Origin: Chiloscyllium plagiosum
Taxonomy: Eukaryota
Length of the DNA: 60,563 nt
NCBI RefSeq assembly: GCF_004010195.1
Contig: NC_057719.1
Span: forward strand, 37,386,138-37,446,700
Reading direction: 5' to 3'
Of the stretch, positions 8,265 to 50,447 are shown piece after piece (within the stretch, counting starts at the first letter, position 1; each line of letters begins with the position of its first letter). A program made the translations under genes and the position numbers. The notes beneath the pieces are model-generated. The model had not been told where the DNA came from, did no database searches, and saw only the letters and a program-made list of their open reading frames with translations.

Positions 8265-8392
8265 AAAAATGAGGACTGCAGATGCTGGAAACCAGAGTTT
8301 AGATCAGAGTGGTGCTGGAAAGACACAGCAGGTCAGGCAGCATCCAAGGAGCAGGAAAATCGATGTTTCGAGCAAAAGTCCTTCATCAGGAA
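8265..8392 (-). mobile_element. Solo PLE terminal-repeat fragment with degenerate hammerhead motif
   Basis: Same sequence as the ends of the RT-bearing PLEs at 11.1 and 49.0 kb. Minus strand reads CTGATGA-AGGAC-TTTT-GCTC-GAAAC-ATC. Confidence 0.8.
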
Positions 8393-10042
8393 CAGATCCG
8401 AGGAGTGTGCGAAATAACCAGAACTAAGTCATCAACTTAGATTTAAAAAAAAATAAAGTGCTAAACCTGAGCTTCCCAAATTGTATCAATCAAACCTTTG
8501 TGAAACAGGCTGATACGTAGACCACTGCAACAATACCTTTTTTTTCAATATTTGCTGTCTTTGTGCTTTCTTTGCTCTATTTGTAAACATTTTTGAAAAA
8601 TGTTCTTAATTATCAAAAGCATAATGATTTGTAATATTATCTGCAATCTACTTAGGTACAATAATCCTATTGTTAAATGAGGGAGCAAACGTAATAAGGT
8701 CTGTGTGTATGTATGCATGCAACTTAATAATTTCTTAAGGAGACTGTTTTGACATTATGCATGATCAGTCAGATAGGACCATGAATACTATTCTGCATGT
8801 TAGATAGATGAGGTAAATTATGCCACACACTCCACAATGCAAAATCCTACTTCTAAAGTGGAATTATGTATAACTCTGTTCATTCCTTTGAAGCCACAAA
8901 TATGCAAACAAATATACCCAGGGGTATAACTCAAAAGATGTAGTGTCAGATTAGAAAGCAATTGCTTTGCTTTAGAGTAATATTTGCCTTTGTTTGTTTA
9001 GATTCTCCCAAAAGTGAGAAAACCAGCAGAAAATGATTATCTCTTTATCACATTTCTATGTTTTCCTCCAGATTGGTTGGTGCCTACAAAGAGTGAAATA
9101 TTGAAGCATAATGCCTAAGATGTCATCACATGCATCCCATTTATGATGTGCATAGAGCTTAGATCATTCATTTTTAAGTTAGGAAAATTACTAGTAGAAT
9201 TATTCGTGGTTGAACACAACAAATTCTTCTCTCTCACCTTAACGAATTAACTTGTTTGTTTCTCTCTGCTAAAATAGTACAGAGAGGAATTGTATATAAG
9301 ACAGTAAATACAATTAAATCGATCTTAATATACTTTTTATTTCATGACCTCACTTTAAAGATCAAAGTCTCTCCATTCCCAGGCATCCATTACAGTGGCA
9401 TTGCACTGAAAAGCAGAAAATGGACAGAAATTCAATCCTAGTGATGTCACTTCCAGGGGATGGGGGACTAGGGATGTAGGAAAAATCTCCTTCAAAAATG
9501 AAAAGCACTTTGTTTAAGTATTTACTTGGGAGCTGTCCACAGTACATGTCATTATCTGCCATTCCATTTGAGAATTACACCTGAATGAAATGGATATCTG
9601 GGTTACAAGGCAGTGTTAACTAAATAAAAGGGTGCGAAAATGACACTAGTTTTAACCAGTATTTCTCCTGGCACTTAGGTTTTCAAGAGCCTTTTTGCCA
9701 ATTGTTTGTAAAAGAATTATTTTCCCTAGCTGCAAAGGGAATCTTGCAGCTGGGTAGTTGGTTAGGATCAATAAGTAAAGCAGCTACAGATAAACAAGGG
9801 TAAACCCAGCAGCAGACATAGGTAAATATACCTTGCTCTGGCAGACAGATGGTGCATTTGGCCATATTTCTTCACTGAAAGCTAGGAAAGCAGATCCCAG
9901 GGTATTGGCAATATCTGTGAATATCTAAATAACTTTATTTAGGACAGTGCTTCAGATGCAAGCCAATCAAAATATAGCATGTAGCATATTCAGTGGTAGT
10001 GTAAAAGAAAGGGTTTGTGACGAACAATAGATATGCAGTGAT

Positions 10043-10078
10043 GGGCGGAGCCTACCAATAGACCACCAATGACACGTG
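10043..10078. promoter_or_regulatory. GC-box, two CCAAT boxes and an E-box in one cluster
   Basis: GGGCGGAGC (10043-10051), CCAAT (10055-10059 and 10066-10070) and CACGTG (10073-10078) within 36 bp of AT-rich intron. Confidence 0.45.
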
Positions 10079-10419
10079 CAAGCTCTGATACAGCTCCAAG
10101 GAATGGCCTTAAGGAAATTTTGGGGTTATTGAGGAATCCGATGTATAACTTGCTAGAGGACATACGCTTCTATTATACAGAATGGGATCAGCACATTCAA
10201 TGACAATCACCATCATCTGTATCACGGTTGGATTTCCTTGCAGGTATTTTCTGAAGATTGCATAATAGAATGTCACAAAAAGCCTCCTTTCTCCACCCCT
10301 TTCAGATTGGGTCCCTCTATTATGCGTACAATTAGAGAAGGGTGTGCTGATGCTATCAAAAAGGTTTTACTTGAATGTTATCAGAATTGAGTGATTATAC
10401 CCATCAGAAATGATTTGAG

Positions 10420-10790
10420 CGGGCTGGGGTCTTTTCTTTCGAACTGATAAGACTGAAGAGTAACTTTATGGAGGCCTTTAAGGTTATGAAAAGTTTTGAT
10501 AGGGCAGACTCTGCAAAAACGTTTCCACTCGCTGGTGAAACAAGAATAATGGGTTGTAAACATAAAATAGTCACTAATAAATGCAACAGGGAATTCAGGA
10601 TCAATTTCTACCCTGAGTGATGTAAATGTAGAACTCATTACCACAAGTAGTAATGGAAACAAATAACATGGGTACATGATAGGGAAAGCAGGTATAAACA
10701 TGAGCTGGGGTGTAGATAAAGGAATAGAGAAGTTTGACGCAGAAGGTGGGAACGCTGCACCAAATGGTTTCTTTTTGTGCTGCAAACAGT
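10420..10790 (+). mobile_element. Old CR1 3' fragment
   Basis: Decayed LGxFSxExxRLxxxxxExFK coding stretch followed by a CR1-like 3' UTR. Confidence 0.6.
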
Positions 10791-11080
10791 ACATAGCCGT
10801 GAAGAGGTTGTGTCACTGGACGCTAATCCAGAAGCCCGAACCACTGTTCAAGGGACATGGTTTCAAATCCCAACATGGTAGGTGGTAAAATTTGAATTGA
10901 GCTTGAATAAAATGGCAACCACTGCAGATTGTCATAAAGCCCAGTTGGTTCATTCACATCCTTTCAGAAAGGCAATCTGACTTTCTTACCCAGTCTGGTC
11001 TACATGTGATTCCAGACCTATAGCAATTTGGCTGACTCTTAACAATTTGATAAATGCTGACCTAATTAGAGATGTCCATG

Positions 11081-11768
11081 CGGAGAAAGTGAGGTCTGCA
11101 GATGCTGGAGATCAGAGCTGGAAATGTGTTGCTGGAAAAGCGCAGCAGGTCAGGCAGCATCCAGGGAACAGGAGAATTGACGTTTCGGCATAAGCCCTTC
11201 TTCAGGAATGGGGAAAGTTTGTCCAGCAGGCTAAGATAAAAGGTAGGGAGGGAAATAGAGAGGTCGAGGAAGGGGAGGGAGGAATGTGAGACTGTCCAGG
11301 TGAATTTGAGGTCGGGGTGGAAGGTGTTGGTGAAGTGGATGAACTGTTCAACCTCCTCGTGGGAGCACGAGGCGGCGCCGGTACAGTCATCGATGTAGCG
11401 GAGGAAAAGGTGGGGGGTGGTGCCAGTGTAGCTGCGGAAGATGGACTGTTCCACTTATCCTACGAAGAGGCAGGCATAGCTGGGGCCTATGCGGGTGCCC
11501 ATGGCTACTCCTTTTGTTTGGAGGAAGTGGGAGGATTGGAAGGAGAAGTTGTTCAGGGTGAGGACCAGTTCAGTCAGTCGAAGGAGGGTGTCTGTGGAAG
11601 GGTACTGGTCGGTACGGCGGGAAAGGAAGAAGCGGAGGGCTTTGAGTCCTTCGTGATGGGGGATGGAGGTGTACAGGGACTGGATGTCCATGGTGAAAAT
11701 AAGGCGTTGGGGACCGGGGAAGCGAAAATCATGGAGTAGGTGGAGGGCATGGGTGGTGTCCCGAACGT
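11081..11768 (-). mobile_element. Young, internally deleted Penelope-like element (RT fragment joined to terminal repeat)
   Basis: RT motifs DIQSLYTSIPH, QTKGVAMGT and LFLRYIDD lie in one frame with a single TAA at 11455-11457. TSD agatgtccatg at 11070-11080 and 11769-11779. CpG-rich. Confidence 0.92.
11175..11209 (-). ncRNA. Minimal hammerhead ribozyme motif (PLE type)
   Basis: auuc-CUGAAGA-ag-GGC-uuau-GCC-GAAA-CG-UC-aauu, with palindromic ACGU stem III and a GUC triplet. Stem I is imperfect. Confidence 0.6.
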
Positions 11769-13349
11769 AGATGTCCATGTCCCATCAACAAATAATATTT
11801 AAAATATCACTTATTTGAAGGCTTATGCTTACTCCCTGGGTTGCCTCTGATAATTTTTGTTCATCACTCCTAACACCCCCTGCCACCCAGCAGCCTAGTT
11901 ACTATTGGTCAAGAAATCCTCTGATCTTTTCTGAAGTTTGTACCAGAGATTTTTCACCTTGCCTGACATATCTCATTAATTTGTTTTTAAAACGTGCAAA
12001 TTTCCATTCCACCCACTCTGACCTCAATATCAATCCAAAGGAGCAGTCAAAATTCCTATTTCAGCTAAAATCTACCAGTAGTAATTTTAAACCATGCCAA
12101 GGTCAGGTTTAAGCATCATCCCCTCTGAAACATTACAACGACTTTTTACAACAGCCTTTCATATTACTGCCTTTCTATTTTTGCTCCTTTACATTACATC
12201 TAAGACATGGTTGCAAACTAGCCTTCAATATCCTCTGGCTCTTAGTCCTCTCAAGCACATTAATTAAAATAGTGACATTGTGGCTTGTTAAGGGTGTGCC
12301 ATTTACAAAGGGATGATTTTTCTCCACAGCACAAGATCAGTGTGTGCCTTTTGAAAATCTTTGCTTGTGAGTTAATTCAGAGCAAAGAAATCAGCCGCGT
12401 TGATCAGTGATGGCTGCTTGCCAGAATTCCCCTGTAGTGAACATACTGTTACAATGCAGACATAATAGGACAGGTTCAGAACAAACCAGTTGGCAACTGG
12501 GCTCTAAACCACAATGGAGACATTGTTAGAAATCATAAATATTGTGATTCCATCATTAATAATTTTCAAAATCAAATATTTAATTTCTAAAAGGGTGTTT
12601 GCAAATGGTAAGGAATTGGAATATTATTCCTGACAAGTCTCCAGGGACCCATTTTGAAGTGAATAGACTGAAAATGTTCTGCCTCTCCGATCCTTTTGGC
12701 TCCAGTTCCAAAAGTAATTGAACCTGACCATTGGACTTGCTCTGGGGACAGGGTAGAGGGACAAGGCTTGTGTGCCTTACAGCTGCACTACAGCAGCTAT
12801 TAAATGGAATTTACCTAAAAGTATCAAATAAAACACACTCTGAAAGGTATGGAGGCATTGAGGTCACACACAATTTCCCAAAAAGGGAACAGTCAGCAGT
12901 TCAGTATCTGACCCAAGCTCTGAACTGAACAGAGAAGCCCAGAGTGGGAGGTCTGCCACATCACCATGCCAAGAGTGAAAGGAAAGAACAATCAATCAGG
13001 CGGCGAAGTTGTGACCGGTAACTTCTGGTACAGTTTCTTAAATGGCCATAACAAACATTGAAGATGGCCTGGAAGCAACCTTCTCCACTGCAGCCATCAC
13101 CTTAGGCAATCGAAGTAATGAGAAAATGTGCCTCGAGGATTCCAAAAAAACCCTTTGTAAAGTAGAAGAGTTGACCTGTCAATAGAGTTGATGATTCTTC
13201 CTAATTGGCCACAGTTGCTTTGAAGCAGAATACCCTAAATCGAGTGGTCCTATTCCCTTTCTGTTTTACTCTTGGACATTGTGGGCTAAGCCATCCTCCT
13301 CCAATGTCTCTCCATCCAGCTGGGTGACCCTGCCTTCACCAGTTCCGTA

Positions 13350-14285
13350 CTTATCTATTGCAATCCGAGCCAAAGGTTGGTTTCCCCTCCTGTTCCCATG
13401 CTGTTACCTCTGGAGTCCTCCCTAAGGATGGTTTGTTGGTCCCCTTCTATTTCTGATCTATATACAGCCCCTCAGAAATGTTATCTACAAATACAGCATC
13501 AGATGTCACATGCATGCTGGTCACACCGAGTTCTACTTCATTACTACCTCTCTGAGCATCTAACTGACTCTTAAATTGTCAGCTTTTTTTGCTTGTCTGA
13601 CATCCAGTACGGTAACATGAAACATTCTCCAATTAAATATTGAGAACACCAAAGGCTTTCTGGATTCCACCATCTCCTAGTTGCTGATTCCATCCTTCTC
13701 CCTCATGGCTGACCTAAGATTGAACCAACCTGATTGTGACCTTGATGTTATATTCTGCCCTGAAACAAATTTCTGACAAATTTTCACACAATCACCTCTA
13801 TTTGTTGCCTCAAGCTCATCTAAAATTCTACTGCCAGTGTCTTTACTCAGACCAAGACCAACTATATGTTCCTGGTAAGGCAACAGCTCAATTTTAATGT
13901 TCCTATCCCTTTTGTCAAATTCCAAATTGGCTTTGACACTCTCCATCTGCTCCCGTCCCATGTACCACGCAGATATCTGCACTCCTTTAGTTCTGGTATT
14001 CTGAGTAACGACAATTTAATTGCTCCACACATCACAGTCAGACCTTCAGCTGCCTGAGCCTGAAGTTCTGAAACTTTCTTTCTCTACCGATATTTAATTC
14101 TCTAACTCCCTTTCCTTCTTTAATAAGCTTCATAAGACTGACCTTTTCGATCTAGCTTTTAGTCATCTGCTCTAATAGCTCTTTAATGTACATCACTGTT
14201 GATGTTTGTTAGAATGTTGTTGTGAGGTGCCTTGTGCTGTTTTACTGTGTAAAAGGTACGACACAAACACAAGTTGTTGTCATTA
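13350..14285 (+). mobile_element. Old L2-clade LINE 3' fragment
   Basis: Decayed GVPQGSxLGPLLFLIY and YADDTQLY-like coding near 13410-13540. L2-type tail ending ...caagttgttgt at about 14280. Confidence 0.7.
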
Positions 14286-14827
14286 TCCTAGCTGCAGTGA
14301 GTTTGCCAGTGGTCAGACCTGGTGGCTAAGTGGTTTTTGCAGAACAGAAGTAGAACAACAAAGCTCTAACTGACTATTTTAGAGCCACTACCCAGTAACC
14401 TTCAGAGGAGAATTTGCCCAAGAAATTAATCTTTTGTGACTCTGGCCCTTAGCTTTATTTGTTGTATTCCAGTTAATGACTTCTTACAAGAGGATTTCCT
14501 CACCTGAAAGGTTCTTTCCTCTCCCAATCGCAGTGGTCTTGAAAAATAAGTAACAAGAAAACTGGATGCATGAACACATCTGATATATTCCCCAAGATTA
14601 TTCACAAAATATTAATTTGAACAACTTGCTATTATTCCCAGTCCTCACATGTGTTGTTCTTGGCAGTGTCATTCACAAAGTACATTGTGGTACCTAGCTC
14701 AACATTTCCACTTCCTTTCTAGCACATTCCCTGCCTTTATGTAGTCATCTGCTTATCTGACACCCACTCTTGGATCAGTTAAATATACTGGAAAAACTGA
14801 AACCATCACCTTATTGCTTAGTCAATT

Positions 14828-14950
14828 TGTTCTGGAAAAGGGTTACACCCAAAATGTTGACTTCTTGACCTCCTGATGCTGCCTGGCTTGCTGTGTTCTT
14901 CCAGCCTTCTACTCATCAACCTTGGATTCCAGCATCTACAGTTTTTTGGC
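14828..14950 (+). mobile_element. Solo PLE terminal-repeat fragment (decayed hammerhead)
   Basis: gggttacacccaaaatgttgacttct...gatgctgcctggcttgctgtg matches the end of the PLE at 32.74-32.83 kb. Confidence 0.75.
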
Positions 14951-15267
14951 TCTAGTCAATTTGTTTTGGAATTCTTCCTAAAATCTCCTCTGGCTCTTTT
15001 CCACTCTCTTCTACCTTAAAATCTTTTTTTTTTGGCCAAACCTTTGCTCACGTACCTTAAAATCATCTCGCCAAAGAAATCTCCATCAAGATTCATTCAA
15101 ACATAATGATACAAACAATGTATTTAATTTCATGCACAATCTAACATCAAAATCCATACAAAACCAAAAACATAATATTGAGAATTAATGTGCTTTAATG
15201 CTCTTTGACTGTCCTGTGGATGTGAAAGCCGTTGTATAAGTGTATGTTAGTCTTTTATGCGTATGAC

Positions 15268-16700
15268 TTTATGACAACATCCCAAAGTATCATGGACATT
15301 TTAAAATTGTAGTTCCAAAATATGTTTTTTGAGAAAAAGGGGCTGATACAACCAAAAGACTAGCTGCGGATATAAATCAAGTGGTTCTCTGGAGAGAGAG
15401 AGAGGGAGAGACCCACAAAACTTCACACCTACAGTTATAAAAACAACTTTAAACAAGAACGCTTCAAAAAAGGTGGAAGACATAAATCAAATCAGACTGC
15501 TGTGGTCTTTATGAAGACATTGAGGGGAAGATGACCCCTGTTCAATAGTAAGCCACCTGCCTTGAATGATGCCTCAAACTAAAGACCCATTATCTTCAAA
15601 GTGAAAATAACACGAGCAGGGGTCAAAATGCATATTTCAATTCTATTAGAGTGTATTAGTGGGATTGAAAGTTCTCATGTGTGTCAGCTTTCTTCAGGCA
15701 TTAGTGTGCTGTGAAAGTCACAGACGATAACTACCTCCTAGTTAGCCATGATGCAGGTAAAGATCTTTCCTGTCTCTGAGTGTTAGAAGTCAAGCAGCTA
15801 GCAGCCTGAGAAAAGGACTCTCTCTCACCCTGAATGCTGGAATTCAATCACGGTTGAAAGTAATCAGAACTACAGAATCTCAACTAATTTGCAAAACTGA
15901 GGATTGTGAAACCAACTGTTCACCAGTCAAAATCAACCCTACCAGTAACCTCCTCTGCAATGGCCATGATGTTCAACTGTCTACTCTTCATGAACAATTC
16001 AGAGGCTGATCCATATATCTATGTTAAAAATCACACAACACCAGGTTATAGTCCAACAGGTTTACTTGGAAGCACTAGCTTTTGGAGTGCTGCTCCTTCA
16101 GGTGGTTGTGGAGTATAAGACCGTAAGACACAGAATTAATAGCAAAAGCTTACAGTGTGATGTAACTGAAATTATATACATATTTATATATATATAATTT
16201 CAGTTATATCACACTGTAAACATTTGCTATAAATTCTGTCTTCCGATCTTATATTTCACAACCACCTGAAGGAGCAGCGCTCTGAAAACTAGTGCTTCCA
16301 AATAAACCTGTTGGACTATAACTTGGTGTTGTGTGAGTTTTAACTTTTTACACCCCAATCCAACACCGGCATCTCCAAATCATATATCTATGTTACCTTA
16401 CATTCGTTCAATTGGATGTGTGTGTGTATGTATGTTATAAGACTCATACTTTGTTAATTCAAGAACATCTGATTAAATTGGCCCCTTTCAAAAGCTAAGT
16501 TAATTTGGTCTGTGGAAACAATATCCAAAGGGAAAGGGATAACTTTTAAAATTAACCTTGCTGTAACCAGCCAAGGGGATGGGTGACGAAGGAAGAGGAG
16601 TCAGTTCATCCCTCCTCACCCAGGAGCTTAATAGTTTGGGGTATCCCATCTGTAATTGCAACAAATTAGGGGACCTAATTTTCGGTCTGGGTGCAACAAT
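15268..16700 (+). mobile_element. Possible degraded solo LTR, interrupted by the palindromic insertion at 16027-16380
   Basis: Begins tttatgaca (tgttatgaca-like) and ends in ...aaca-like termini. Overall layout resembles fish/shark Gypsy LTRs by recollection only. Confidence 0.3.
16027..16380. mobile_element. Fold-back (inverted) PLE terminal-repeat insertion
   Basis: Inverted arms of about 150 bp around a (TA)n loop. TSD catatatctatgtta at 16012-16026 and 16381-16395. Decayed hammerhead cacCTGAAGGAGCagcGCTCTGAAAACTAgtg. Confidence 0.85.
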
Positions 16701-17285
16701 GACATGAGCCTGTTTTTGACAAATAAATATTCATGCAAGTTCATTATCTTAATCCCTTGTGCAGATGAAATTGACAGTGAGAATTTCCAAATGCTCACTA
16801 CATGGAGAGTTTCTGAATCAGTCAGGCTGACTGATTAGTTAACATAACTCTGCTTGGCATCGCCCCAATTTTAGCAAGAAAAACTAGAAGACAACAATTT
16901 CCTGTGCTTTTCTACCAGTTTCCAGCAGATGGTCTTGGAGTTCAGAGGAAGCAATGTCCACTTGCACTCTCAATCTTGAGATAATGTATGGATCAGGTGT
17001 GAGAAAAATACAATGCAGAAAGCAAGAAAATAAACTGATATTGCTGGGTTTAAATAAAAGTTATTCCTGTAAGGTTTGTGAAGGTTTCTTGGAATTAGTG
17101 ACGCTATTTCTGAAACAAATGCCATCACTTCAATCCATCATCATTTACTAACAATGGACATGACGAGCTAGAATGATAACTCAAACAAAGGTACAGTGTC
17201 AGTTGTCAAAAGCTTCCACATGTTTGCAAATCACATCTTATTTTATGGGGAGCTTCTATAAGTGGAAGGGAACTCAAACACTTAC

Positions 17286-17342
17286 CTGCTTTGTTAGCAC
17301 TGCCCTGTTTATCTGCCTCCAATCGTTTAGATGCTGCCTGAT
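17286..17342 (-). CDS. EML1: Probable in-frame 57-nt EML1 cassette exon (DQAASKRLEADKQGSANKA)
   Basis: Long polypyrimidine tract plus ttag acceptor, consensus donor CAG|gtaagt. Symmetric phase 1-1 and open in the frame needed between the two clear exons. Confidence 0.75.
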
Positions 17343-18180
17343 CTAAAGGTCCATAAAGAGGAGAATTTGGCAAAGAAGAACAGACAAGAGAGGAAAATAA
17401 AATATAAATAAGACTGAAACATTAACAGAAAGCAGAAAGAAAGGTTTAACAGTATGATATAAACAAAAGATAAAATAATTAGCAGTAAAATAGAGTAGGT
17501 AGGAAAAGGAAATTTTAAATATTCACAGAAGTAGTATGTTTCTGTGTGGTGTCATTTGAAACCTCAATAATGAACAACTGATCTCCAATTTAATAGGAAA
17601 AGGGAAATTCTAATAACCTGTAAATCAGACATTTTTAACAATATAACTGTAATCGGACATTTTAACTATCAGTTTTAGGCAGTGCAAAATATTCAAGAGT
17701 CACAACTTCAATGCAACTGAAATCTGAGATTCTGAGAACATTTCACACAATTACTAATAGTTGTTGAAAACTAGTTTACACAAAAATTGCACCTTACAAA
17801 AGAAAATAGAACTTTTCTAATATTCTCAAGAGTTCCTGCCTTGGCTCACTCCCAACGATACTCCAGCACAGACAAAGAAAATACTTCATAGTAGAGAGAG
17901 GTGAATTCTGGATAATACATCATTAACGACCTGCAGGTTATTGGTACCAATCTTTGAAGTAAGATAGTATATTTTAGCTTTGAAACTATCACTAGACCAA
18001 ATAAAATATTAAAGGTAGGTTCTTCAAGCTTTAAACAAAGAAATTGAACAGCCAGATGAAATATAACACACCTTTCCAATTAAATAATATGAAATGGATC
18101 CTAAACCACTGTATTTTATTTCCTAAGCTATTAGGGATGCTCTATAATAACTTGAATTCAACTGTGTATGTATTACTTTG

Positions 18181-18300
18181 GCTGCTGGGACGTTTTACAA
18201 ATGCACTATATAAATGCAAGGCTGCTGGGACGTTTTACAAAGGCACTATATAAATGCAAGGCTGCTGGGACGTTTTACAAAGGCACTATATAAATGCAAG
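18181..18300 (+). repeat. Three tandem 40-bp copies of an L2/DeuSINE-type 3' tail
   Basis: Unit gctgctgggacgttttacaaa(t/g)gcactatataaatgcaag, with one mismatch among the three copies. Confidence 0.92.
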
Positions 18301-18420
18301 CCACAGTTGTTTAAAGACAATTTCACCTCCAGTTTAAATGGTACTTAGAGTGTGTTTGTGGTTCTGTTCATAAGGTTTGCTATTCCAAAGCAGTTTCAAC
18401 TGGTTAACTTCAAATGATGA

Positions 18421-18550
18421 AGCTCTGACGATGAGTCACCAGCCTCGAAACATTAACTCTGTTTTCTACACTGCAGCCAGAACTGCTGAGTTTCTCCAGC
18501 AATTTCTGTTGTTGTTTCAGATCTCCAGCATCCACAATTCTTTATTTCAT
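18421..18550 (+). mobile_element. Solo PLE terminal repeat with hammerhead-like core
   Basis: CTGACGA-T-GAG-loop-CTC-GAAAC-ATT followed by the typical ...gctgagtttctccagcaatttctg...tccagcatcc tail. Confidence 0.75.
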
Positions 18551-19759: not shown

Positions 19760-19955
19760 TAAAGTTGCCATAGTCCTACTAGACTGTAGAGCTGCGCTCT
19801 CACAGGAGAGAAAGCTGACTGGTGGTAGTTTAACTGTGGGTAAACTCGCCTCATATGAAGGGATAGGTTAAAACAGGAACCTCAGCCAGTGTAGGAATTG
19901 AACCAGCGCTGTTGGCACCATTCTGTAACTAGCTAACTGAGTAAACCAACCCCCT
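19760..19955 (-). mobile_element. tRNA-derived SINE
   Basis: Minus-strand head with A-box-like ggtttactcagttag and B-box ggttcaattcc. Confidence 0.6.
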
Positions 19956-21495: not shown

Positions 21496-21678
21496 CTTTG
21501 GTAGGTCCCTTCCTATTCAGCATGGCCTGTTGTTCTTCAGAAACATTCAAACGTCGGACTACATCAGCCAGTGCTGACTTGAGCAGCTGAATCTCATCCT
21601 CCTGCATCTGTACACGCTGCTCCAGAGAGGCGATTCGATCCGTCATCTCCATGCTGCTGGCTGCAGAGGCACTGTCAT
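21496..21678 (-). CDS. EML1: EML1 coding exon (N-terminal coiled-coil/trimerisation domain)
   Basis: Translates as (D)DSASAASSMEMTDRIASLEQRVQMQEDEIQLLKSALADVVRRLNVSEEQQAMLNRKGPTK, nearly identical to vertebrate EML1 as recalled. Acceptor ttttacctcag, donor AAG|gtaacc, 183 nt, phase 1-1. Confidence 0.96.
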
Positions 21679-21929: not shown

Positions 21930-23370
21930 GAAGATAGATCAGGAAGAGTATCATCATGAGAGACAAAGTAGTTTGCCAACTAATGGAACGGAAGGCAGAT
22001 AGGTTGCCAGGACTTGATTACCTACATTCAAAGGTATTAAAGGAAATGGCTGCAGATATAGTATGGTAATTAGTCAAAATATTCCAGAACTCACAACTTT
22101 CTGGGAGGGTTCTAGCCGATTGAAAAAGCACTAAAGTGATGTCCTTGTTCAAGAAAGAAGGGAGACAGAAAGAAGGAAAGTATAAACCAGTTAAGGGAAA
22201 GTGAGGATTGCAGATGCTGGAGATCAGAGTCGAGAGTGGGGTGCTGGAAAAGCACAGCAGGTCAGACAGCAACCGAGGAGCAGGAGAATCAGGAATGAAG
22301 GGCTCTTACTCGAAACGTTGATTCGCCCGCTCCTTAGATGCTGCCTGACTTGCTGTGCTTTTCCAACACCACACTCTCGACTATAAACCAGTTAAGTCGA
22401 ACATCTGCCTTTGGAAAATGCGAGAGTCCATTATTAGGGAAGAAATAGCAGGACATTTAGCGAAGCTTAACATTATCAAACATAGTCAGCATGGTTTTGC
22501 ATAAAGGAAGTCGTGTCTCACAAATTTACTTGAGGTTTTTGAGGGTATAATGAGCAGAGTTGATGAAGGGAAACTGATAGATGTCCTCTACTTGGAGTTC
22601 CAGAACGCATTCAGCAAAGTGCCACATAAAAGGCTATTGTACAAGAAGGGAGCTCATCATATTGAGAGTAATATATTTGCATTGATTGAGGCTTTGCAAA
22701 GGAAGGATAATAGAGATGCAGACAATTCAGATTAAACGTGCATTTTTCAGACTGGAAAGACATAACTAGTGGGATGCCACAATGATCAGGCTGAAGGCCT
22801 CAATTATTTACTATTTAGATAATGACTTGGAGGAGGGGGCAGAGTGTAATGATTCCAAATTTGTGGATAATGCAAAAATAGGTGAGAAGGCGTGTTGTGA
22901 TGAAGACATATGCAAGACAACATTGATAGTTTATGTGAGTAGGCAAAAACTTGGCAGATGGAACTCAATATAAATACATGGAGAGAGATTCCAAATAGGC
23001 ACAGTGGGACCTGGGTTTCTTGTGTTTGAAACTCAAAACATTAGCATGCAGGTGAGCAAGTAACTAAGAAAATGTAGAGGTTGGAATGAGGTCAGCTAGG
23101 TGGACGTCACAAAGTACGAGTTTCCTGATTAGGGCTATTTATCTGGGTCTAATCAGGGAGCCCTGGCTGGCAGACAAGAACAGGAGTGTCAGGGGTTTTG
23201 TTCACTCTAGGAGACAGCAAATTAGATTTTGGCCTTTATTGCTTGGAGTTTGCTAGTTGAAAATAGGGAAGTCTTGTCATAACTGAGACCACACCTGAAG
23301 TACTAAGTACAGATTTGGTCCCTATATTTTAAAAAAATCATACTGGCCTCGGAGGCAATTTAAAAGGGCC
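21930..23370 (+). mobile_element. Older CR1 RT fragment with nested insertions
   Basis: ORF pieces DVLYLEFQNAFSKVPHKRLL and SKFVDNAKIG. Interrupted at 22196-22381 and about 23073-23215. Confidence 0.85.
22196..22381. mobile_element. Fold-back PLE terminal-repeat insertion inside a CR1
   Basis: Inverted arms and TSD tataaaccagttaag at 22181-22195 and 22382-22396. Partial hammerhead ATGAAGGGC..CTCGAAACGTT in the loop. Confidence 0.9.
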
Positions 23371-25107: not shown

Positions 25108-25255
25108 AAAGTTCTGTGGATGCTGGAGATCTGAAATAAAAAGTGACATTTTTGGAGAAACTGGAGTTTCAAAGAAGATCGTATCAGACTAAGAAAAGTT
25201 GATTTTGTTTCTCTCTCCACAGATTATGCTGAGTTTCCCCAACAATTATTTGCTC
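25108..25255. mobile_element. Old degenerate inverted PLE terminal-repeat pair
   Basis: ggatgctggagatctgaaataaaa...ggagaaact is followed by the opposite-orientation ctctctccacagat...gctgagtttcccc. Confidence 0.5.
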
Positions 25256-25620: not shown

Positions 25621-25818
25621 TAGATTAGATTACTTACAGTGTGGAAACAGGCCCTTCGGCCCAACAAGTCCACACTGACCCGCAACCGGAGCACCCGGAG
25701 GAAACCCACGCAGACACGGGGAGAATGTGCAAACTCCACACAGTCAGTCGCCTGAGGCAGGAATTGAACCCGGGTCTCTGGCGCTGTGAGGCAGCAGTGC
25801 TAACCACTGTGCCACCCA
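25621..25818 (-). mobile_element. HE1-type SINE, internally shortened, inside a LINE remnant (about 25510-26045)
   Basis: Head ggtggcacagtggttagcactgctgcctcacagcgccag, B-box ggttcaattcc, tail gggccgaagggcctgtttccacactgta(atcta)n. Confidence 0.9.
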
Positions 25819-29990: not shown

Positions 29991-31529
29991 AGACTTCGTA
30001 GCAGTTTGATTTAACTGAATGGCTTGCTCAGCCATTTTAGAGTGCAGTTAAGAATCAATCATATTACTGCAAATCTGGGGTCATGTGCAGGCTAAATCAG
30101 CTAGAGATGGCATAATACTTTCCATGAAAAATATTTGTGAACAAAGTGGATTTTATAACTATTGATTTTCATCAGTTTTCTCAGATTCTTTTGTTGAATT
30201 CAGATTTCACAAATGATATAGTAGGATTTCATCCAACATTACCATAACGTTTGCCTATGGCTCTAGATTATCAGTCCATTGCCATTATCACTGCACCCCC
30301 AACTCCATTCCACTATCACTTACCTTTATCTTGAGACCCCTGGTAAGGCCCAAGTGAATTGCCAGCAGCAGCCACTACTCCCAATGGCATTGCCAGCCTC
30401 TGACTGTCCAGGACACTTGGAGACAAAGTTTATTCCTTCGTGGGGAAGTACAACAACTAAATGGCTCCCATGGAATGAGAATCTCCATGAGTAGGGTTGA
30501 CAATCATTGACATAGTTTCCCCAGGCTACTTCTCCTGAAATATGTTTATGGGATGTGGATGTTACTGGCAAAGCCAACAATTGGAGATCCCAGGTTCAGT
30601 AATAGACAGTGTCACCCTCATTATATTTTACTCATATACTTTGAGCTTCATAATTGATTCTTAGTCAAATCACATGGAATCTGTAATGTTACCACTGTCT
30701 CGAAATGTCTGTAGCTCATACAAGTGTCAGAGTGACTCGCAGGTGAACTTTATCCCTGTGCAGAAGCTGCACCTGGAGACCTCATTCCTTTTTCAATTGC
30801 TGTTTCCAAGTTAGCTTGTATGGCACAGGAGAGTGGGAAGTTAATAACACAGACTTAAAAAACATTCAACATGTCATCTCTGGATTATTCAGGCTGCATA
30901 CTTATATTTGTAAGCTTAGAATAGATTGTTTTACAAATCTTTGAATAATGTGATGGTATCGTGTTTATTCCACCCTTATACATTGCAGCTTAACTCCTAA
31001 AACTTGTCAACTTTTAAACAAAAATAGTTAAAAAGATAAGTTTAATGTCCAAGTGAAAAATCAATTAAACGTGGCCCATATCTCCCCAACTCCAGATCAT
31101 CAATACCAGATGTGTAATCCAAGATATGTTAGGATCGTGCAAAAACCTGGAATTAATCACTCAGTGTGAAATGCCCACAAATGTTTAATGAACAAATTTC
31201 CTGCTCTCACTTACCTTATCACTCCCAACCCACTTACCTGGATACTTATCCAGTAGATGTTAGTACAATCTGAGTCTAATTCCTGGAAAGTACCAAAATA
31301 ACCTTTCCAACACTCACATTGATTGGACTCTCAATTCCCCAAGACCCTGACTGAGCCCCTGACACTGACTCAGGAATCCCCAACACCTGAATTGATTAAT
31401 CCTTACCACCAGGCTCCCCCACCAACCTGACAGGGTCCAAATCTGACAAATCTTACCAATCCACACATGCACCCACCTGCTACGCCTGACTCTCTGTCGG
31501 CTACGTCGAATACTCCACTTCAGTACCTG

Positions 31530-32830
31530 CACAGGCACTGTGCCCCAACTCCTCCACCGTTACACCAATGACTGCATCGGCGCAGTGTCCTGCACCCAGA
31601 CTGAACTGGAGCAGTTCATTGACTTCTCCCACAAATTCCACCCTGCCCTCAAATTCACTTGGTCCACCTGGAAACCTCCCTCCCCTTTCTCGACTTCTCC
31701 ATTTCTATCTCTGGCAACAATCTCCAGACAGACGTTTACTATAAACCCACAGAATCTCACAACTACCTGGACTACACCACCTTCCACCCAGTATCCAGCA
31801 AGAACTAAATCCCGTTCTCCCAACTCCGCCGCCTCCGCCACATCTGCTCAGACGAGGAGACATTTCACTCCCAAACATCCCAGATGTCCACCTATTTCAA
31901 ACAATGCGCTTTTCCCCCCTCTGTCATCCAGATAGCCCTCCACTGCACCATCTCCATTCCCCGCTGCACTGCTCTAAACCCCCCTTACTAAAAGAAATAA
32001 AGACTCACCTACCACTCCACCAGTCTTCACATCCAATGTATCATCCTTAAACACTTCCGCCAACTCCAAATAGACCCCACCACCAAGAACATCTTCCCCT
32101 CCACACCACTCTCTGCTTTGCAAGGATTATTCCCGAGACTGTCCTTGGTTCGTGCCACTCTCCCCACCAAAACCCACGGACCAGAAAAAATGCAAAACCC
32201 GCCAGCACACCACCCCCCTCACCTCCATGTAGGGCCCCAAACAATCGATCCAGGTGAGACAGAGGTTCATCTGCTTCTCTTTCAACCTAGTTTATTGTAT
32301 CCGGACCAAACGTAAACTTAGGGCATGTTTTGCCAAGCATCTCAGCCGGGCCGACAGGGGCTGACTGGACCTCCCAGTCACTGCCCACTTTAATTCCCCT
32401 TCCCACTCCCTTTCCAACATGACCATCCTCAGCCTCCTTCATTGCCACAATGAACCAAACCGCAAATTGGAGGAACAACACCTCATCTTCCTCCTGGGCA
32501 GTCTACAGCCTGGAGGACTCAACATTGAGTTTTCCAATTTTAAATAAACTCCCTTCCTATCGCCCGACTCCCTTCCCAGCCCCTCCCCCTCCCTTCCATT
32601 CTTCTGACTGACCGTTCCTTCCAGCTACTAACCGGATTCATTCCTTCCATCAACCAACCAGGTCGTACCCTCTATCTGTGGTCACCTATCCCTACTCACC
32701 CCATCCCCTTTATCAGCAGCTCCCCTTACACTCACTCCCAGTCCTGAAGAAGAATTACACCCAAAACATTGACTTCTGCACCTCCTGATGCTGCCTGCTT
32801 GCTCTGTTCATTCAGCCTCCTGCTTGCATA
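31530..32830 (+). mobile_element. Truncated Penelope-like element (RT C-terminus, partial GIY-YIG region, terminal repeat)
   Basis: RYTNDCIG..EQFIDFSHKFHPALKFTW and YKPT..HNYLDY motifs. Decayed hammerhead agtcCTGAAGA...AAAACATTgact at 32740-32775. Confidence 0.88.
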
Positions 32831-40626: not shown

Positions 40627-41332
40627 AGTCCTCGCTGGTTTCCTGACAACGTTATCTGGTAGGACAGTGATCACACAATGCAGTAACATTTATTGTCAGA
40701 ATCTAACAGGCAACCCAACTGCCCTGAACCCAAATCAGCACCATTATAAAGTGGTGCAGTAAGCAGGGCCAACTTATTTTAAGAGCTTACCAATTCTGGT
40801 CCTAACAAGGTATGAGGTTGGAAGTGTATTAGAAAGAAAGGGAAATTCTTGAATTGATACAGTCCGATATATTGTCAGTGACAAAGTATTTACACATAGA
40901 ATTCAATGTACTACTCTGAAAAAGGCTATTTGACCCAACTTGTCTAGTCCTTTATTTACGCTGTCTATGACTCTTGACCAACACAATGAATTGCTTTAAA
41001 ATACAGTTATTGCCTTTCCATAGATGTAAGGATGATAGTACAGGGACTTCTTATCCCAAAGTGTTAGTCAACAGTAATGCATTCCAGTAGGTACTAAACC
41101 AGGTAGTGTTACACAGAACTGAGTGACCCATCTAGGCATAGCAAAGATGTGTTGAAAGAGGATTATACAACTTTGAACAGGCAGATGTCCTTAGTGTTTT
41201 ATGAAGTGATTGTAAACTACCTCTGCCAATGACTGGCTTTGGTGTTCACGTAACCTGGCTTTGCCCCTATCAGCTTTCTCCTTTCTAATTTTGGGCACTT
41301 TCTTCACAATTGCTTACTTGCATGCCATTCCA

Positions 41333-41606
41333 TTGACTTGGATCCCATTTACCATCCCCGAGAAAAACAACAGGAAAGTAACATCATCATAGGAAATGAT
41401 GTCACCACAGGAAATGACATCACCAACCCTAGGAAGCTCAAGTATATAAAATACAAAGTGGGCTACACTACCAATGCTTGCTTTGGAGGCTCACTGAAGA
41501 TATTACCTAGTATGGTGATGAAATATCTGAAAATGAACCTTCCAGCTCAGGGAGCAAACCTACATCCTGAACTTCAACCTGAGCTACAAATCTTCTCAAA
41601 ACTCGC
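41333..41606 (+). mobile_element. PLE 3' end/terminal repeat of a further family
   Basis: Starts with the ORF tail HxDLDPIYHP and carries a hammerhead motif at 41492-41529. TSD tgccattcca at 41323-41332 and 41607-41616. Confidence 0.8.
41492..41529 (+). ncRNA. Minimal hammerhead ribozyme motif (PLE type)
   Basis: ca-CUGAAGA-u-AUUACC-uaguau-GGUGAU-GAAA-UA-UC-ug: both core boxes, a 6-bp stem II, palindromic AUAU stem III and an AUC triplet. Confidence 0.65.
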
Positions 41607-42556
41607 TGCCATTCCAACACATAGGTAGGTGCAGAATCTGGTGTGAAAATTGGACCTCTTCACTTTCCATAAAGTCACCTTATGAGGCAATATTTTGCAA
41701 AGGAGGGTCACTAAGCATTTCAACATTTAAATTTTGTTAAATGGCTCCATGAGAAGTAACATTACAATCATCACAAATGCATTGTACTTGATGGGTAACC
41801 TCCTTCGAAAAGATACTGGAAGGTCTGTATTTCTTCCATGCTTGTTGAGTATGTGAAAATATTGCCTTACAATCTTTGACCTATGAAACTCAGCTCAGCA
41901 TGAGTCACTGTCTTTCTGTGAAACATGAAGAAAAAATAAAACTCTCAGCTATACCTCATGCTTTAATCAGCTGCCCACGAAACACTCCAAAATATTCATT
42001 ATGCAAAGTCAATGTGAAATGACAAACCAGAGAAATAATACAGGCAACATCAATACAGCATGTGCATTTTCCATTAAAACAGAATAAAAGTGGGTAGCTT
42101 GAAAGATGTTTGGAGTCCAAATATTTATAAGTCCTAAAAATATTTAACTAAGCAAGACTTTTCTGGTTTACCGTTTACATAGACATTGTAGATTATTACA
42201 AATTTTGACTCACTTCTATCTGGAGCCTGGATCAAATGTGATCTGATCAGTTCCGCCACACAATTAACAAGTGAAAAACCTTTACAGTCAAAAGTTGCTG
42301 TTTAGGGATTGATCGAGCACTTTCTGTCACATGATTGTGACAACATTCCAAATTCCAGATATCTAACTATTTAAGTTGGAGATCTATTAACTCAAAGAAA
42401 GTACTCATCTGTCTAATACTAGTTTTTAAGGAACTTGTTAATTTAAAATGGACGTCGAAATTCCCACTTTCCCTCCATCATATGCTGTACTGGCATGAAG
42501 GATGGGGAATTGGGAAGGTACAGTACCAATCTGCTCGTGTTGACAAGGCTCCTCAC

Positions 42557-44400: not shown

Positions 44401-44409
44401 TATTCTTCT

Positions 44410-44850: not shown

Positions 44851-45494
44851 CTAAAATACTATGTAAACACTATAGCATCTTCCATCCAGTTCTGGAAGAG
44901 GATCACTGGACCCACAGATGCTGTCAGATCTGCTGAATTACCTCAGCAATTTCTGTTTTTGTTTCTGATTTCCAACATCCAGTTCTTTTTTTTTTGTTAA
45001 CATCTTCCACATCATGGCCTGAAACAAAATATTTAATTGCAGGGACACTTGCAACGTACTTGTATTTTATGCTCCCTTTGTATTCATTGAGCATTATTCT
45101 TTCGCAAATATAGTCCAGGCAGCTTAAACTACATGCTAATTATGTCATCTGCCATGTGACCATTATTCTTCTCTTTTGAAAGCAATGAATCACATTAGAA
45201 TAAGGTTCTCCAGCTGACATCCCAACCACTTTGCTAATTGAAATGGGCTGACTCTTGTGCAAATCTGACAGTGAACCCAAGACCCTAAGCATATCAACTT
45301 GATAAGCATTAAAGCACTCACATCAGAAGGTGAAGCACCGAGACCCCAAATGTTCCCAATGTGTTCCCTTGAAAGAAGTACAACAACTGCTGCTCATAAA
45401 TCCTCCACACTGAAGACATTGCTGGTAACACACAATGTGGTTTAGTACTGTACCCAGCAGCATAAAGGGTACGCCTCTCATGCTATTGCTCGTA

Positions 45495-45825
45495 GAATCA
45501 CTACAATGCAGAAGCAGGCCATTCAGCCTGTCAAGTCCACACCGCCCCTCCATAAAGCATCCCACCCTGAGCCACACCCCCTACACTTTCCCTTAATTCC
45601 CCATGGCTAATCCACCTAGCCCACACATCCCTGGACACACTTAGTATGGCCAATCCACCTAACCAGCACATCCTTAGACTGTGGGAGGAAACCAGAGCAT
45701 CTGGAGGAAACCTATGCAGATACAGGGAAAATGCAGAAACTCCATTCAGTCACCTGAGGGTGGAATTGAATCCAGGTCCCTGGCTTTGTGAGGTAGCAGT
45801 ACTAGCCACTGAGCCACCATGCTGC
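45495..45825 (-). mobile_element. Older full-length HE1-like SINE
   Basis: Head atggtggctcagtggctagtactgct, B-box ggattcaattcc, CR1-like tail. Confidence 0.85.
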
Positions 45826-45864
45826 CATCACAGCATTAGTTCAATGATCAGACATTCTTTTTTG

Positions 45865-46215: not shown

Positions 46216-46896
46216 ATGAATAAAATATTGGGTTAATGAAAGGGTTGCATTTATAATTTACTAACAGAGAATTCCCAGGCTACTTCACTGCTGTTACTAA
46301 GCCTTTGTAAAAGCTATATTGGCAGTTTGAGATGAATGACTTGTGTTACAGTGGTGGCCCAACACTGGTGGTGAGAGAAATTCCCACATCACACTGAGTG
46401 GGAGGCAGACTACACATTGTGCTGTGAGAGCTGCATGAAGCTAGTGGATTATGTGTAATATGACTCTCAGCAATGGCACTTAGGTACAATTGTTCAGTAC
46501 AGAATAGCTGTTTGAAATTGTTGTGGGTGTGTTTACGGCAATGAACCAAAGAATGATTTTTAAATAAATTATGGACCTTGATGTTCCTGTTACATAGAAT
46601 GAGTATACACAAGCAAAGACACTTGAGTGCTAGCAATGGGCAATAAAAACCATATTGCATTCGCTAGTGATGGTAGAAAGGATCTAACACAGGGCAGAAT
46701 CTTATAGAAGCCTGAACAATATGAGCTGGCTAGAGAAGAGATGGAATAGTGTGAATAGTTGAGTGAGGACTTTCTTGATATTGGGAACAACTTTCTGCAT
46801 CTTTTAACTACAGTCTGGATGTTGAGACTAGATTCTCACTACAGAGCGCTGTGTTGCCTGTTAAGGGAAATTATCGCTTGTTAGACCTTATTTAAC

Positions 46897-47045
46897 GTTG
46901 AAACTTTATTGCTGGAACAGCACAGCAGGTCAGGCAGCATCCAGGGAACAGGAGATTCGACGTTTCGGGCCTGACCTGCTGTGCTGTTCCAGCAATAAAG
47001 TTTCAACTTTGATCTCCAGCTCTGCAGACCTCACTTTCTCCTCGA
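46897..47045. mobile_element. Young fold-back PLE terminal-repeat insertion
   Basis: Perfect 39-bp inverted repeat (46897-46935 and 46969-47007). TSD agaccttatttaac at 46883-46896 and 47046-47059. Confidence 0.92.
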
Positions 47046-47409
47046 AGACCTTATTTAACTGCAGACCTTGCCTCATTAATATGCAGTTTCCTATCCTGCC
47101 ACCCACTGTGCACTAACGATGCACTGAGAAGTCAGAGCGGATATCTGGCAACTTCAGCTTGTTGTGAGGAGCACCTACCCATCCACCCCCCTCCCTCACC
47201 CCGTGTTGCTCAACACCAAACACCATCTCTGGTCTCGATCGATGGGCATGTGATGCACATGCCCCTTGTCCATTGACACTGGCATCTAATAATTTCCAAA
47301 CACTAAGGATCCTATTGGTAATTCTCTGATCCACTTGCAGGGTACTTAGGAAATATAGACCCAAGCTGCAGGGCACACTGACAAAATGGTTTGATTGGCT
47401 GCTGCAAGG

Positions 47410-47707
47410 ACTAGAGGGGATAGGTTTAGGGTGAGGGGGGGAAAGATATAAAAGAGACCTACGGGGCCACCTTTTCACATATAGGGTGGTACGTTATGGA
47501 ATGTGCTGCCAGAGGGAGTGGTGGAGGCTAGTACAATTCCAACATTTAAAAAAGACATCTGGATGGGTATATGAATAGGAAGGTTTCAGAGGGGTATGGG
47601 CCAAATGCTGGCAGGTGGGACTAGATTGGGTTGGGATATCTGGTCGGCATGGACAAATGGGACCGAAGGGTTTGTCTCTGTGCCTTACATCTCTATGACT
47701 CCATGAC
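47410..47707 (+). mobile_element. CR1 3' end fragment
   Basis: Matches 3200-3500, including the tail. Confidence 0.9.
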
Positions 47708-48980
47708 ATTTTGGATGAGAGGAGGGTCATTCAACCTGCTCACGGATTGGACCAGGCTGCATCTCAGGCCTACTCACTCGCTGTCTCCACACTCGCTCGC
47801 CTACATTCATGCTCGCAGCATCCCTGCCCTGCCATGCCTTGCCCATATGCATTGTTGCTTCAGCCAGTGCCTAAAGGTTATCATTACTGGCTTTGTTATG
47901 CAGACACACAGAGAGGGTGCTGGTCATGTTTGTCCTGGTACTGACAATCAAGAGCACAGTCTGAGCACTGTCCTGGGGTTAGGCCGCAGTCAGTCCATTA
48001 GGGCCAATCATGGTTAGCGGATCTGTCCGACTACTAGGCAGTAGTCAGTCCTGCAAAGCCATCACAAGCAGTCAGAGGCATCATGTATCATCAGTTGGAG
48101 AGCTGCAAAAACACAAGTCCAGGGGCTGGTCAGTCATGTCTAGGGGCTGTCATTCGAAGTCAATAGAGATCCAAGGATTGTTGAGCTGGGTTCAGACATG
48201 GCTTGTAGGTTCAAAGGGAGATCATTGCCAAGAGGACTGGGGTCACCTGGGGATGAGAAGCAAGAATATGTGTCAAGAGGGCAAGGACAGTGACGGGGGA
48301 GAAGTCGAGGTATAAGAAGCAAATGTGAAGCAACAATGAAGGGAATGGTAAGTTATGGGGGTGTGGGCAGACTTTGGGGTGGGGGTGGTGTTATTGCAGG
48401 GACACCACTGTGGCCTCCAACAAGGAGCCTAGTGAACCATTGTGAGCATCATTACAGTATAATGTTGGGATTCAGGATTGGGTGGGTGATGGGCGAGATG
48501 AGCTGTTGGAGTAGTGTGAGATAGAACAGAACATGGAGGTTCTGAGAGGGTACCCGGCAATTAGATGGAGCATGGTACTGTCTGTGTCTAACGAGCTGTT
48601 CACTTGACACTAACTACAAATGGAAAACCTTTGGGACAATGTGCGGGCTCAGTGCAGACATCATCAGTATGACAGGTGAAGGCAAGATTAGGACATTGAA
48701 GGGACAAACACATTCAGTCTGAAGCTAGAATTTCCAAGCACATTTCATTTTCAATTATTTAATTGTCTATTTGCAATGCATTCAGAGTGAACATGCTTAA
48801 GGTTCAAAAGCTGACCATAGATGATATGAACAAATTGAACAGTTGGCATCTCAAATGATGCAACTGTCAGTGACAATGTGTTAAAAGGAAGCAAATGCTG
48901 GCTCAATACAGCCCATAACTAAGACGACTGCTGCATCATCAGACATAAGAGTATTACACTGGACTATATTGAATGCAATT

Positions 48981-50447
48981 AGGAGAAAGTGAGGATTGCA
49001 GATGCTGGAGAGTCAGAGTTGGAAAGTGTGGCACTGGAAAAGCATCCGAGGAGCAAGAGAGTCAACATTTTGGGCATAAGCCCTTCATCAGGAATGTGGA
49101 GGGGGAAGGGGATAAGAGATAAATAGGAGGGTGGGGGTGGGGCTGGGAGGAAGGTAGCTGGGAAGGCTGGTGGATGCAGGTGAGGGGTGATAGTGGTAGG
49201 TGGGGAGGGTGGAGTGGATAGGTGGGAAGGAAGAGGGGCAGGTCATGAGGGTGGTGCCGAGTTGGTGGGCTGGATCTGGGATAAGGCAGAGGGTGAGGAG
49301 ATTTGGAAACTAGTAAAGTCAATGTTGATGCTGTGTGGTCCCAAGTCGGTATATGAGGCTTTCTTCCTCCAGTTGTCGTTGACTTGGATTTGGTGGTGGA
49401 GGAGGCCCAGGACTTGCATGTCCTTAGGGCAATGGGAGGGGGTGTTGAAGTGGTGGACCACAGGACAGAAGGGTTGTTTGGTGTGTGTGTGTCCCAGAGA
49501 TATTCCCTGAAATGTTCTGCGAGTTGGTGTTTTGTCTCCCCGATGTAGAGGAGACCACATTGAGAGCAATGGAAGTTGATATGGTGGGTGGATGTGAAAA
49601 GATCCTTTGGGGCCTTGGACGGAGGTGAGGGGGGAGGTGTGGGTGCAGGCTTTGCATCTCTTGCAGCAGCAAGGGAAGTTGTGGGAAGTGAAGTGTGGGT
49701 TGGTGGGGTGCCTGGACCTAACAAGGGAATCGCAGAGGGGATGGTCTTTGCAGAATGCAGATAAGGGTGGGGAGGGAAATCTGTCTGTAGTGGTGGCATC
49801 TAATTGTAAATGGTGGAAATGATGAAGAATAATATACTGTATCTGGAGATTAGTGAAGTGGTAGGTAAGGACCAGGGAGTTTATATCCTTGTTGCAGTTG
49901 GAGGGGTGGGGTTCAAGAGCAGACGTGCGGGCAGTGGAGGAGATGCCTTGGAGGGCATTGTTGATCATGTGGGAGGGGAAATTGCAGTCCCTGAAATAGG
50001 AGGACATCTGGGATGACCTGGATTGAAATTCTCCTCCTGGGAGCAGATATGGCAGAGGAATTGGGAGTAAGGATTGTGATTTTACAGGAGGGGAGGTGGA
50101 AGGAGGTGTAGTCAAGAGCTGTGGGAGTCAGTGGGTTTGAAATAGATGTCTGGGTTGAATTGGTTGCTGGAGATGCAGACAGAGGTCCAAGAGGGGGAGG
50201 GAGGTGTCGGAGATGGTACAAGTGAACTTAAGGTCAGGATGGAATGTGTTGGTGAAGTTGATGAACTGTTCAACATCCTCGTGGGAACACAAAGTGGAAC
50301 CAATACATTCATCAATGTAGTGGAGGAAAAGCTGGGGAATGGTGCCAGTGTAACTAGGAAAGCTGGACTGTTCCATGTATCTGATGAAGAGGCAGCACAG
50401 CTGAGCCCATGGCTACCCCTCTGGTCTGATGGAAATGGGAGGATTCA
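48981..50447 (-). mobile_element. Truncated Penelope-like element (RT C-terminus, GIY-YIG, terminal repeat)
   Basis: LFLHYIDE..EQFINFTNTFHPDLKFT, and CSQCGLLYIGETKHQLAEHFREY. The hammerhead remnant at 49061-49095 has GAAA mutated to AAAA. Confidence 0.92.

Follow-up and report, generated by a model that had tools for sequence, protein, structure and literature searches.

We analysed a window of 60,563 nucleotides (nt) from Chiloscyllium plagiosum (GCF_004010195.1, NC_057719.1:37,386,138-37,446,700, forward strand; genome 3.56 Gb) that lies entirely inside the gene EML1. An initial annotation had placed about ten hammerhead ribozyme motifs or remnants there and proposed that short, ribozyme-defined RNAs are mobilised as retrozyme-like elements. 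All ten coordinates proved to be repeats of the hammerhead-bearing termini of Penelope-like elements (PLEs). We think it probable that the short copies, here called stubs, are single or head-to-head insertions of Neptune- or Poseidon-like PLE termini flanked by target site duplications (TSDs), in which complementary DNA (cDNA) was primed internally by the element's enzyme and ran off the 5' end of the RNA at helix I of the hammerhead. The copies in the window are ordinary decayed PLE inserts, without sign of an effect on EML1, and the value of the analysis lies in the signal of an insertion mechanism across the genome population rather than in these copies.

The population sample of 1,382,523 non-N bases was drawn from twelve blocks of 50 kb, the 260 kb surrounding EML1 and two further genes of the EML family, and leans to introns. 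It contained 463 repeat arms and 104 motifs passing a hammerhead descriptor in 1.38 Mb; were this intron-rich sample representative, the whole genome would have ∼1.2 million arms and 0.27 million such motifs. Positions within a unit are numbered from the C of CUGA (0), placing the hammerhead cut site at +28. For family A, the sample held 257 arms; 18 beside assembly gaps were set aside, leaving 239 to be scored. Their 5' ends form a step at the front edge of the hammerhead, with 91 at -10 to -1, 50 at 0 to +9, one at -20 to -11 and 47 further upstream. Expressed as a stop rate, this is 6.55% per nt at -10 to -1 (91 of 139 arms at risk) versus 0.21-0.44% per nt further upstream. The same step was observed for young copies (66/93) and for single copies (33 at -10 to -1, none at -20 to -11). 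The ends peak at -3/-4 (45/239), the start of helix I in families A/B and C; this position fits an initiator consensus. Steps were also found for family D (25 of 91 ends at -14 to -1, three at -37 to -15) and family C (18 of 84 at -7 to -1). Thus in families A, C and D the predicted defined 5' ends were borne out, and the continuous spread of truncations that would have spoken against the initial annotation was not seen. Eight family E arms ending at -2 belonged to another subfamily and were not truncations, and an apparent fixed 5' end of family D at 329 nt disappeared with more copies. It is likely that the step at the front edge of the hammerhead marks the RNA start.

The 3' ends of family A cluster at two sites, ∼+90 (short) and ∼+126 (long), and those of family E fall at +107 to +114. 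Among 62 head-to-head pairs of family A, 59 combine a long with a short arm, three have two short arms and none has two long arms; long-plus-short pairs likewise make up 19/21 in family D and 11/15 in family C. TSDs, mostly of 14-16 nt, a size in line with staggered cuts, flank 44 of the 62 pairs and 22 of 98 singles, against 0 and 1, respectively, in the controls. The two arms of a pair resemble each other more than they resemble other copies: 26/35 fall in the top tenth, and loop II is identical in 11/13 against 0.32 expected. Stubs outnumber coding copies, with 30 of all 257 family A arms extending at least 190 nt upstream.

Upstream of the family A unit lie a pyrimidine-rich 3' untranslated region (UTR) and then an open reading frame (ORF) with reverse transcriptase (RT) and GIY-YIG endonuclease (EN), continuous in the family A reference. 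In copy L056 these matched RVT_1 (E=1.5e-4) and GIY-YIG (E=2.9e-4), neither match reaching the curated cut-off of Pfam. A C-x4-C-xx-C linker precedes EN in family A and is absent in family E; a CX2-5CxxC linker at this place is a Neptune mark according to the accessible text of PMC8557442. Families A, B and D therefore appear Neptune-like, the linker being seen directly in A, and family E, because it lacks the linker, Poseidon-like. Families D and E run upstream into GIY-YIG-type C termini (read by eye), and family E has an ATG at stem II. Family C probably also continues into an RT/GIY-YIG ORF, given its kinship to A through shared tail sequence.

An RT query returned 29,690 first-look candidates genome-wide. 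Of 30 loci fetched with an N-terminal query, four carry a hammerhead unit in direct orientation 1.05-1.37 kb upstream, in the order hammerhead unit, shared leader, ORF. The family A ORF would start near +165, placing the hammerhead in the 5' UTR, and the full-length element L249 begins at about -5. Since the unit lies upstream of the ORF in full-length elements, a stub corresponds to the 5' end of the element as well as to its 3' repeat. The features of endonuclease-bearing (EN+) PLEs are thus present: a single ORF with RT and C-terminal GIY-YIG (family A), a pseudo-long terminal repeat (pLTR) with a hammerhead in direct or inverted orientation and an optional tail, and a TSD. In two full-length family A elements, L261 and L263, a variable tandem expansion rich in Thr and Ala separates the leader domain from the N-terminal motifs of RT; it recalls the Asn-rich inserts that the available part of PMC3846280 describes for rotifer PLEs.

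Searches with the leader sequence identified copies elsewhere in the genome whose leader passes straight into a second hammerhead unit. When the query itself included a joint of this kind, 30/30 fetched loci carried it, a biased result. A leader-only query provided 20 loci, out of 32 new matches among 40 scored. Six of these join the unit start (-5 to -3), four join inside the unit (∼+28 to +45), four join the 3' UTR (two of these joints being identical), four run into the ORF, one ends in unrelated DNA and one in a gap. Overall, 35 of 39 joints reaching a core restart at -3 to -8. Sixteen restart exactly at -4, of which 13 are preceded by G and three by A; after merging shared joints and dropping four with a leader-supplied G, 7/10 have G (P=0.004 against 0.256). 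In the biology of long interspersed nuclear elements (LINEs), an extra G at the 5' end of retrocopies is taken as a trace of the cap. These two-unit chimeras, all outside the window, suggest template jumps from which retrozymes could arise. A fixed RNA 3' end near +265 (30/30) was dropped because that query contained the joint; leader-only joints lie at +240 to +346 and those of a third set at ∼+455 to +680. Two 340-nt loci on different chromosomes, L344 and L348, have an identical leader-to-3'UTR joint and an identical additional deletion, and are likely a small internally deleted PLE derivative that was amplified.

A mechanism may be proposed on this basis. The endonuclease would cut both target strands, and each 3' end would prime at one of the two RNA sites (∼+90 or ∼+126), so that cDNA would reach the capped RNA 5' end after 95-130 nt. 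Joining of the cDNA to the target would give a single stub, and joining to the other cDNA a fold-back; a jump further downstream on the RNA or into the 3' UTR would give chimeras, long copies and partial tandems. The ribozyme would be carried uncut, without its cleavage defining the unit, and the copies would then decay neutrally. There is biochemical precedent for such a reaction: the available portions of PMC11167929 report that, for an Anolis PLE in vitro, RT started at two internal sites, both strands were cut and extended, and hammerhead cleavage was dispensable.

Several observations weigh against this reading. The boundary is ragged, in that the 141 of 239 family A ends that define it are spread over -10 to +9. 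Family E (29 arms) shows no step and a continuous 5' spread, so there the expectation of defined ends failed. The omitted gap-adjoining arms are mostly long, and in old subfamilies that lack a matching long reference a start at the core can be called in error. TSDs were found for fewer than a quarter of singles. In the unbiased sample the signal of an extra G is no more than suggestive (8/18, P=0.064), and the query yielding most joints itself contained one. In the available parts of PMC11167929, no difference between the strands in start site was seen, whereas the long-plus-short rule implies coordination. Finally, 3105 reads of one sequencing run (X19) revealed no start or end site and another run (X20) gave no reads; dispersed copies dominate the X19 reads, 96% of which continue into dissimilar sequence, and the library type is unsuited to unit-length or circular RNA.

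The same ends might arise if the stubs were ordinary 5'-truncated PLE insertions, with RT stalling, or two cDNAs annealing, at a structure or palindrome near the hammerhead while the RNA starts elsewhere. Many fold-back joints do fall on short palindromes near the core, plain truncation suits family E, and PLE 5' truncation, inverted pLTRs and microhomology joins are described in the accessible text of PMC3846280 and PMC8557442. We nevertheless consider this unlikely: the step is as sharp in singles as in the arms overall, it lies upstream of stem II, and the restart point of the direct-orientation chimeras coincides with it and carries an extra G. We also give little credence to a third possibility, that stubs are transcribed from an internal promoter and spread, independently of full-length elements, as a 130-nt family resembling short interspersed nuclear elements (SINEs). 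Although the excess of stubs over coding copies would suit it, and the promoter of D. virilis Penelope lies inside the transcribed region (PMC2377424, in the text available), no stub-specific shared joints or captured flanks occur among the junctions listed, and the subfamily variants of stubs are common to long and leader-bearing copies.

The proposal of the initial annotation, that a non-autonomous retrozyme-like family retrotransposes short RNAs excised by dimeric hammerhead cleavage, is in our judgement very improbable in general and largely refuted for the copies of the window. It could draw on the defined ends and own TSDs of the units, on palindromic helix III, on compensatory helix I changes between families, and on L344/L348, whose one deleted structure indicates that small amplifying derivatives exist; moreover, the preprint 10.64898/2026.07.22.740005, in the part available, counts solo PLE-terminus homologues as retrozyme monomers. 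However, the ends lie where helix I begins, ∼32 nt before the cut site, and no peak occurs at the cut site itself (3/239 at +25 to +29). The units are not circularly permuted, and fold-back centres vary from copy to copy. No tandem arrays were found among the 463 sampled arms (16 same-strand neighbours within 500 nt, several artefactual), and every family runs into an RT/GIY-YIG ORF, directly in A, B, D and E and probably in C. Furthermore, both arms of the family D pair at 16023-16385 lack an identical 3 nt of the core, a deletion also present in 3/28 unbiased family D cores, indicating that a core-deleted template was still copied and mobilised.

The hammerheads themselves conform at family level to the minimal type I pattern, with core boxes, stem II, helix I and a palindromic helix III, as far as can be judged from sequence. 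The descriptor matched 62 times in 811,665 sampled bases versus 0, 0 and 2 times in three Markov shuffles, so the motif class is not due to chance. Helix I has 3-4 bp, and its letters differ between families while pairing is kept; its third pair is U-U in 51/71 A/B matches. Hammerheads with short helix I and palindromic helix III are described in the accessible part of PMC4209133. Folding of the unit and cofolding of two cores gave energies neither for nor against an active dimer; a 2017 study reportedly observed dimer cleavage of these ribozymes. In the window, CUGANGA and GAAA are both kept at four of the ten sites (8389-, 11205-, 18425+ and 41494+), and only the last, antisense to EML1, passes the descriptor (stem II of at least 4 bp). 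An Rfam scan of the window gave no hammerhead family among 17 matches at E<=5; those at 16036-16278 and 46902-47002 were sub-threshold microRNA and internal ribosome entry site hairpin models hitting fold-backs.

EML1 is encoded on the minus strand: a shark EML1 protein mapped onto 260 kb of sequence places exon 1 outside the window and the exons beyond coding exon 3 to its left, all on the minus strand. From this layout all ten sites are intronic, and minus-strand PLE copies are sense in EML1 pre-mRNA. Such copies are indeed present, as had been suggested, but none passes the descriptor. No strand bias was observed in the three EML-family genes: singles were 56 sense and 62 antisense (P=0.65), and arms with both core boxes 32:32.

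The claim of at least four terminal-repeat families was upheld. Family A accounts for the sites at 8359, 11175, 22295, 46955 and 49061, its relative B for 14830 and 32740, and families C, D and E for 18422, 16262 and 41492, respectively. The description of most sites as non-coding units of 130-350 bp holds for six of the ten (about 120-363 bp); the other four (11175, 32740, 41492 and 49061) keep coding remnants, and no TSD was found at these long copies. Five of the ten sites have clean TSDs of 13-15 nt, consistent with the earlier observation of several. The stub at 8262-8396 has a degenerate 11-nt TSD with one mismatch (8248/8404) and keeps both core boxes, with stem II and helix III mismatched. 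The hammerhead of the deleted copy at 11085-11773 has a 1-nt deletion in stem II and a broken first helix I pair, and the stub at 18421-18550 keeps both core boxes with stem II down to 3 bp. Neither arm of the pair at 22197-22382 contains a whole core.

Table 1. PLE-derived copies in the window and coding exons of the host gene (positions in the window)
Feature	Position	Strand	Details
Family A single stub	8262..8396	-	Starts 7 nt upstream of CUGA; long 3' end
Family A internally deleted copy	11085..11773	-	522 nt RT coding (97.5%) joined to 46 nt 3' UTR, hammerhead and tail
Family B single stub	14829..14947	+	Both core boxes mutated; 13-nt TSD 14819/14953
Family D head-to-head pair	16023..16385	.	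Short and long arm, 5' ends -77/-78; 15-nt TSD 16012/16381
Family C single stub	18421..18550	+	Starts 4 nt before CUGA; 14-nt TSD 18404/18552
Family A head-to-head pair	22197..22382	.	Long minus arm, short plus arm; 15-nt TSD 22181/22382
Family C fragment, missed by the initial annotation	25108..25162	-	No core matched
Family B old 5'-truncated copy	31476..32826	+	RT/EN remnants ∼70% to family A reference; GAAA box mutated; short 3' end
Family E (Poseidon-like) 5'-truncated copy	41331..41607	+	Begins in last EN codons; antisense to EML1
Family C stub, missed by the initial annotation	44880..44993	+	Core partly deleted; 9-nt TSD 44876/45001
Family A head-to-head pair	46894..47042	.	CUGA box in neither arm; 14-nt TSD 46883/47046
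Family A old 5'-truncated copy	48981..50445	-	RT thumb and GIY-YIG remnants (72%); GAAA box mutated; long 3' end
EML1 coding exon 3	7308..7436	-	Shark EML1 protein mapping
EML1 coding exon 2	21496..21678	-	100% identity to shark proteins
EML1 coding exon 1	78978-78913 (window-equivalent, outside window)	-	Shark EML1 protein mapping

Parts of this picture have been published: hammerheads in pLTRs, solo and inverted pLTRs, and a one-sided tail are described in the available text of PMC4209133, PMC3846280 and PMC8557442. Published minimal type I hammerheads of PLE termini, in the text available, share with the shark an unpaired base before stem II, G10.1-C11.1-type closing, a palindromic 15.2-16.2, short helix I, several families per genome, and a majority of dispersed single copies ascribed to truncated PLEs. 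The same published work proposes cleavage and circular templates, whereas the shark copies, as read from their sequence, start upstream of an uncut hammerhead. EN+ PLE insertions, according to the accessible parts of PMC3846280 and PMC8557442, consist of a pLTR, an inverted 5' copy, an optional 30-40-nt tail and a TSD; inverted copies, a tail on one end, TSDs, solo pLTRs and initiator-like pLTR motifs all recur in the shark. PMC3846280, in the same portion, ascribes fold-backs to self-priming and TSD-less solos to recombination or deletion. Unlike this layout, most shark inserts comprise only the initial 95-130 nt of the inferred transcript; their 5' step is sharp and their TSDs measure 14-16 nt. 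The shark units are EN+ PLE termini and work like them.

The closest biochemical counterpart is PAc, a Poseidon element of Anolis (Frangieh et al. 2024, PMC11167929). From the available text, PAc resembles the shark elements in that RT starts at two internal sites on either side of the tail, both strands are cut and then extended, the hammerhead is not needed and no reads end at the cut site; family E is like PAc also in its ATG and 3' end positions. Family A differs in that its hammerhead appears to lie in the 5' UTR, and the one-long-one-short rule and 5' run-off are shark features not reported for PAc in the accessible portion of that paper. Metazoan non-LTR retrozymes (PMC7229834; 10.64898/2026.07.22.740005), as far as the text available describes them, share a type I hammerhead, lack of protein, origin from PLE termini, dispersed monomers and long TSDs. 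They are tandem 150-450-nt units giving linear and circular RNAs, whereas the window units are single or inverted, with 95-130 nt per arm and mostly dead cores. Neither the window nor the 463 sampled arms contained head-to-tail repeats in which two or more consecutive units have a hammerhead, and unit ends were not set by cleavage (3/239 at +25 to +29 versus 91 at -10 to -1); because both tandem organisation and cleavage-set ends were looked for and not found, we do not class the shark units as retrozymes. By the accessible text of the preprint such copies would be classed as monomers, and retrozymes would come from PLE termini.

Looking forward, we tentatively suggest a fuller scheme, which is possible but which we hold with some doubt. 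Neptune transcripts would start at the first base of the hammerhead, and a dimeric enzyme would prime both target strands at two fixed sites within the first 130 nt, producing a strong-stop-like cDNA that reaches the cap, so that a template jump is needed for anything longer. Failed jumps would leave stubs and fold-backs, jumps to the 3' UTR would give pLTRs and partial tandems, and short jumps would give 250-350-nt two-hammerhead repeats, the birth form of animal retrozymes. Combining 5' run-off with template jumps accounts jointly for stubs, fold-backs, partial tandems and retrozyme-sized repeats, and can be tested by the published in vitro assay together with 5'-end mapping. It bears on two questions that the available portions of the sources state as open, namely how PLEs regenerate the pseudo-LTR (PMC2377424) and by which route PLE termini become retrozymes (10.64898/2026.07.22.740005). 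No report of shark PLE hammerheads, the 5' step, the extra G or the jumps came up in the literature searched, which did not extend to most subscription papers, Repbase entries or preprint supplements.

Positions 58510-58628 of the window are an assembly gap of 119 N. Many long PLE copies of the assembly adjoin gaps, which implies a bias against long copies. The shark EML1 isoform P0009 has a 19-residue exon between exons 2 and 3 (window 7437-21495) that was unplaced in the tblastn listing. Long LINE-like copies at ∼36579-40608 (+), 55228-59363 (-) and 1925-3469 (+) share 76-91% mutual identity and contain endonuclease- and RT-like frames; from inspection by eye we take them to be of CR1/L2 type. 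A SINE-like repeat family has copies at 25621-25825, 40181-40276, 45488-45827 and 52448-52760, which are probably of the shark HE1 type.

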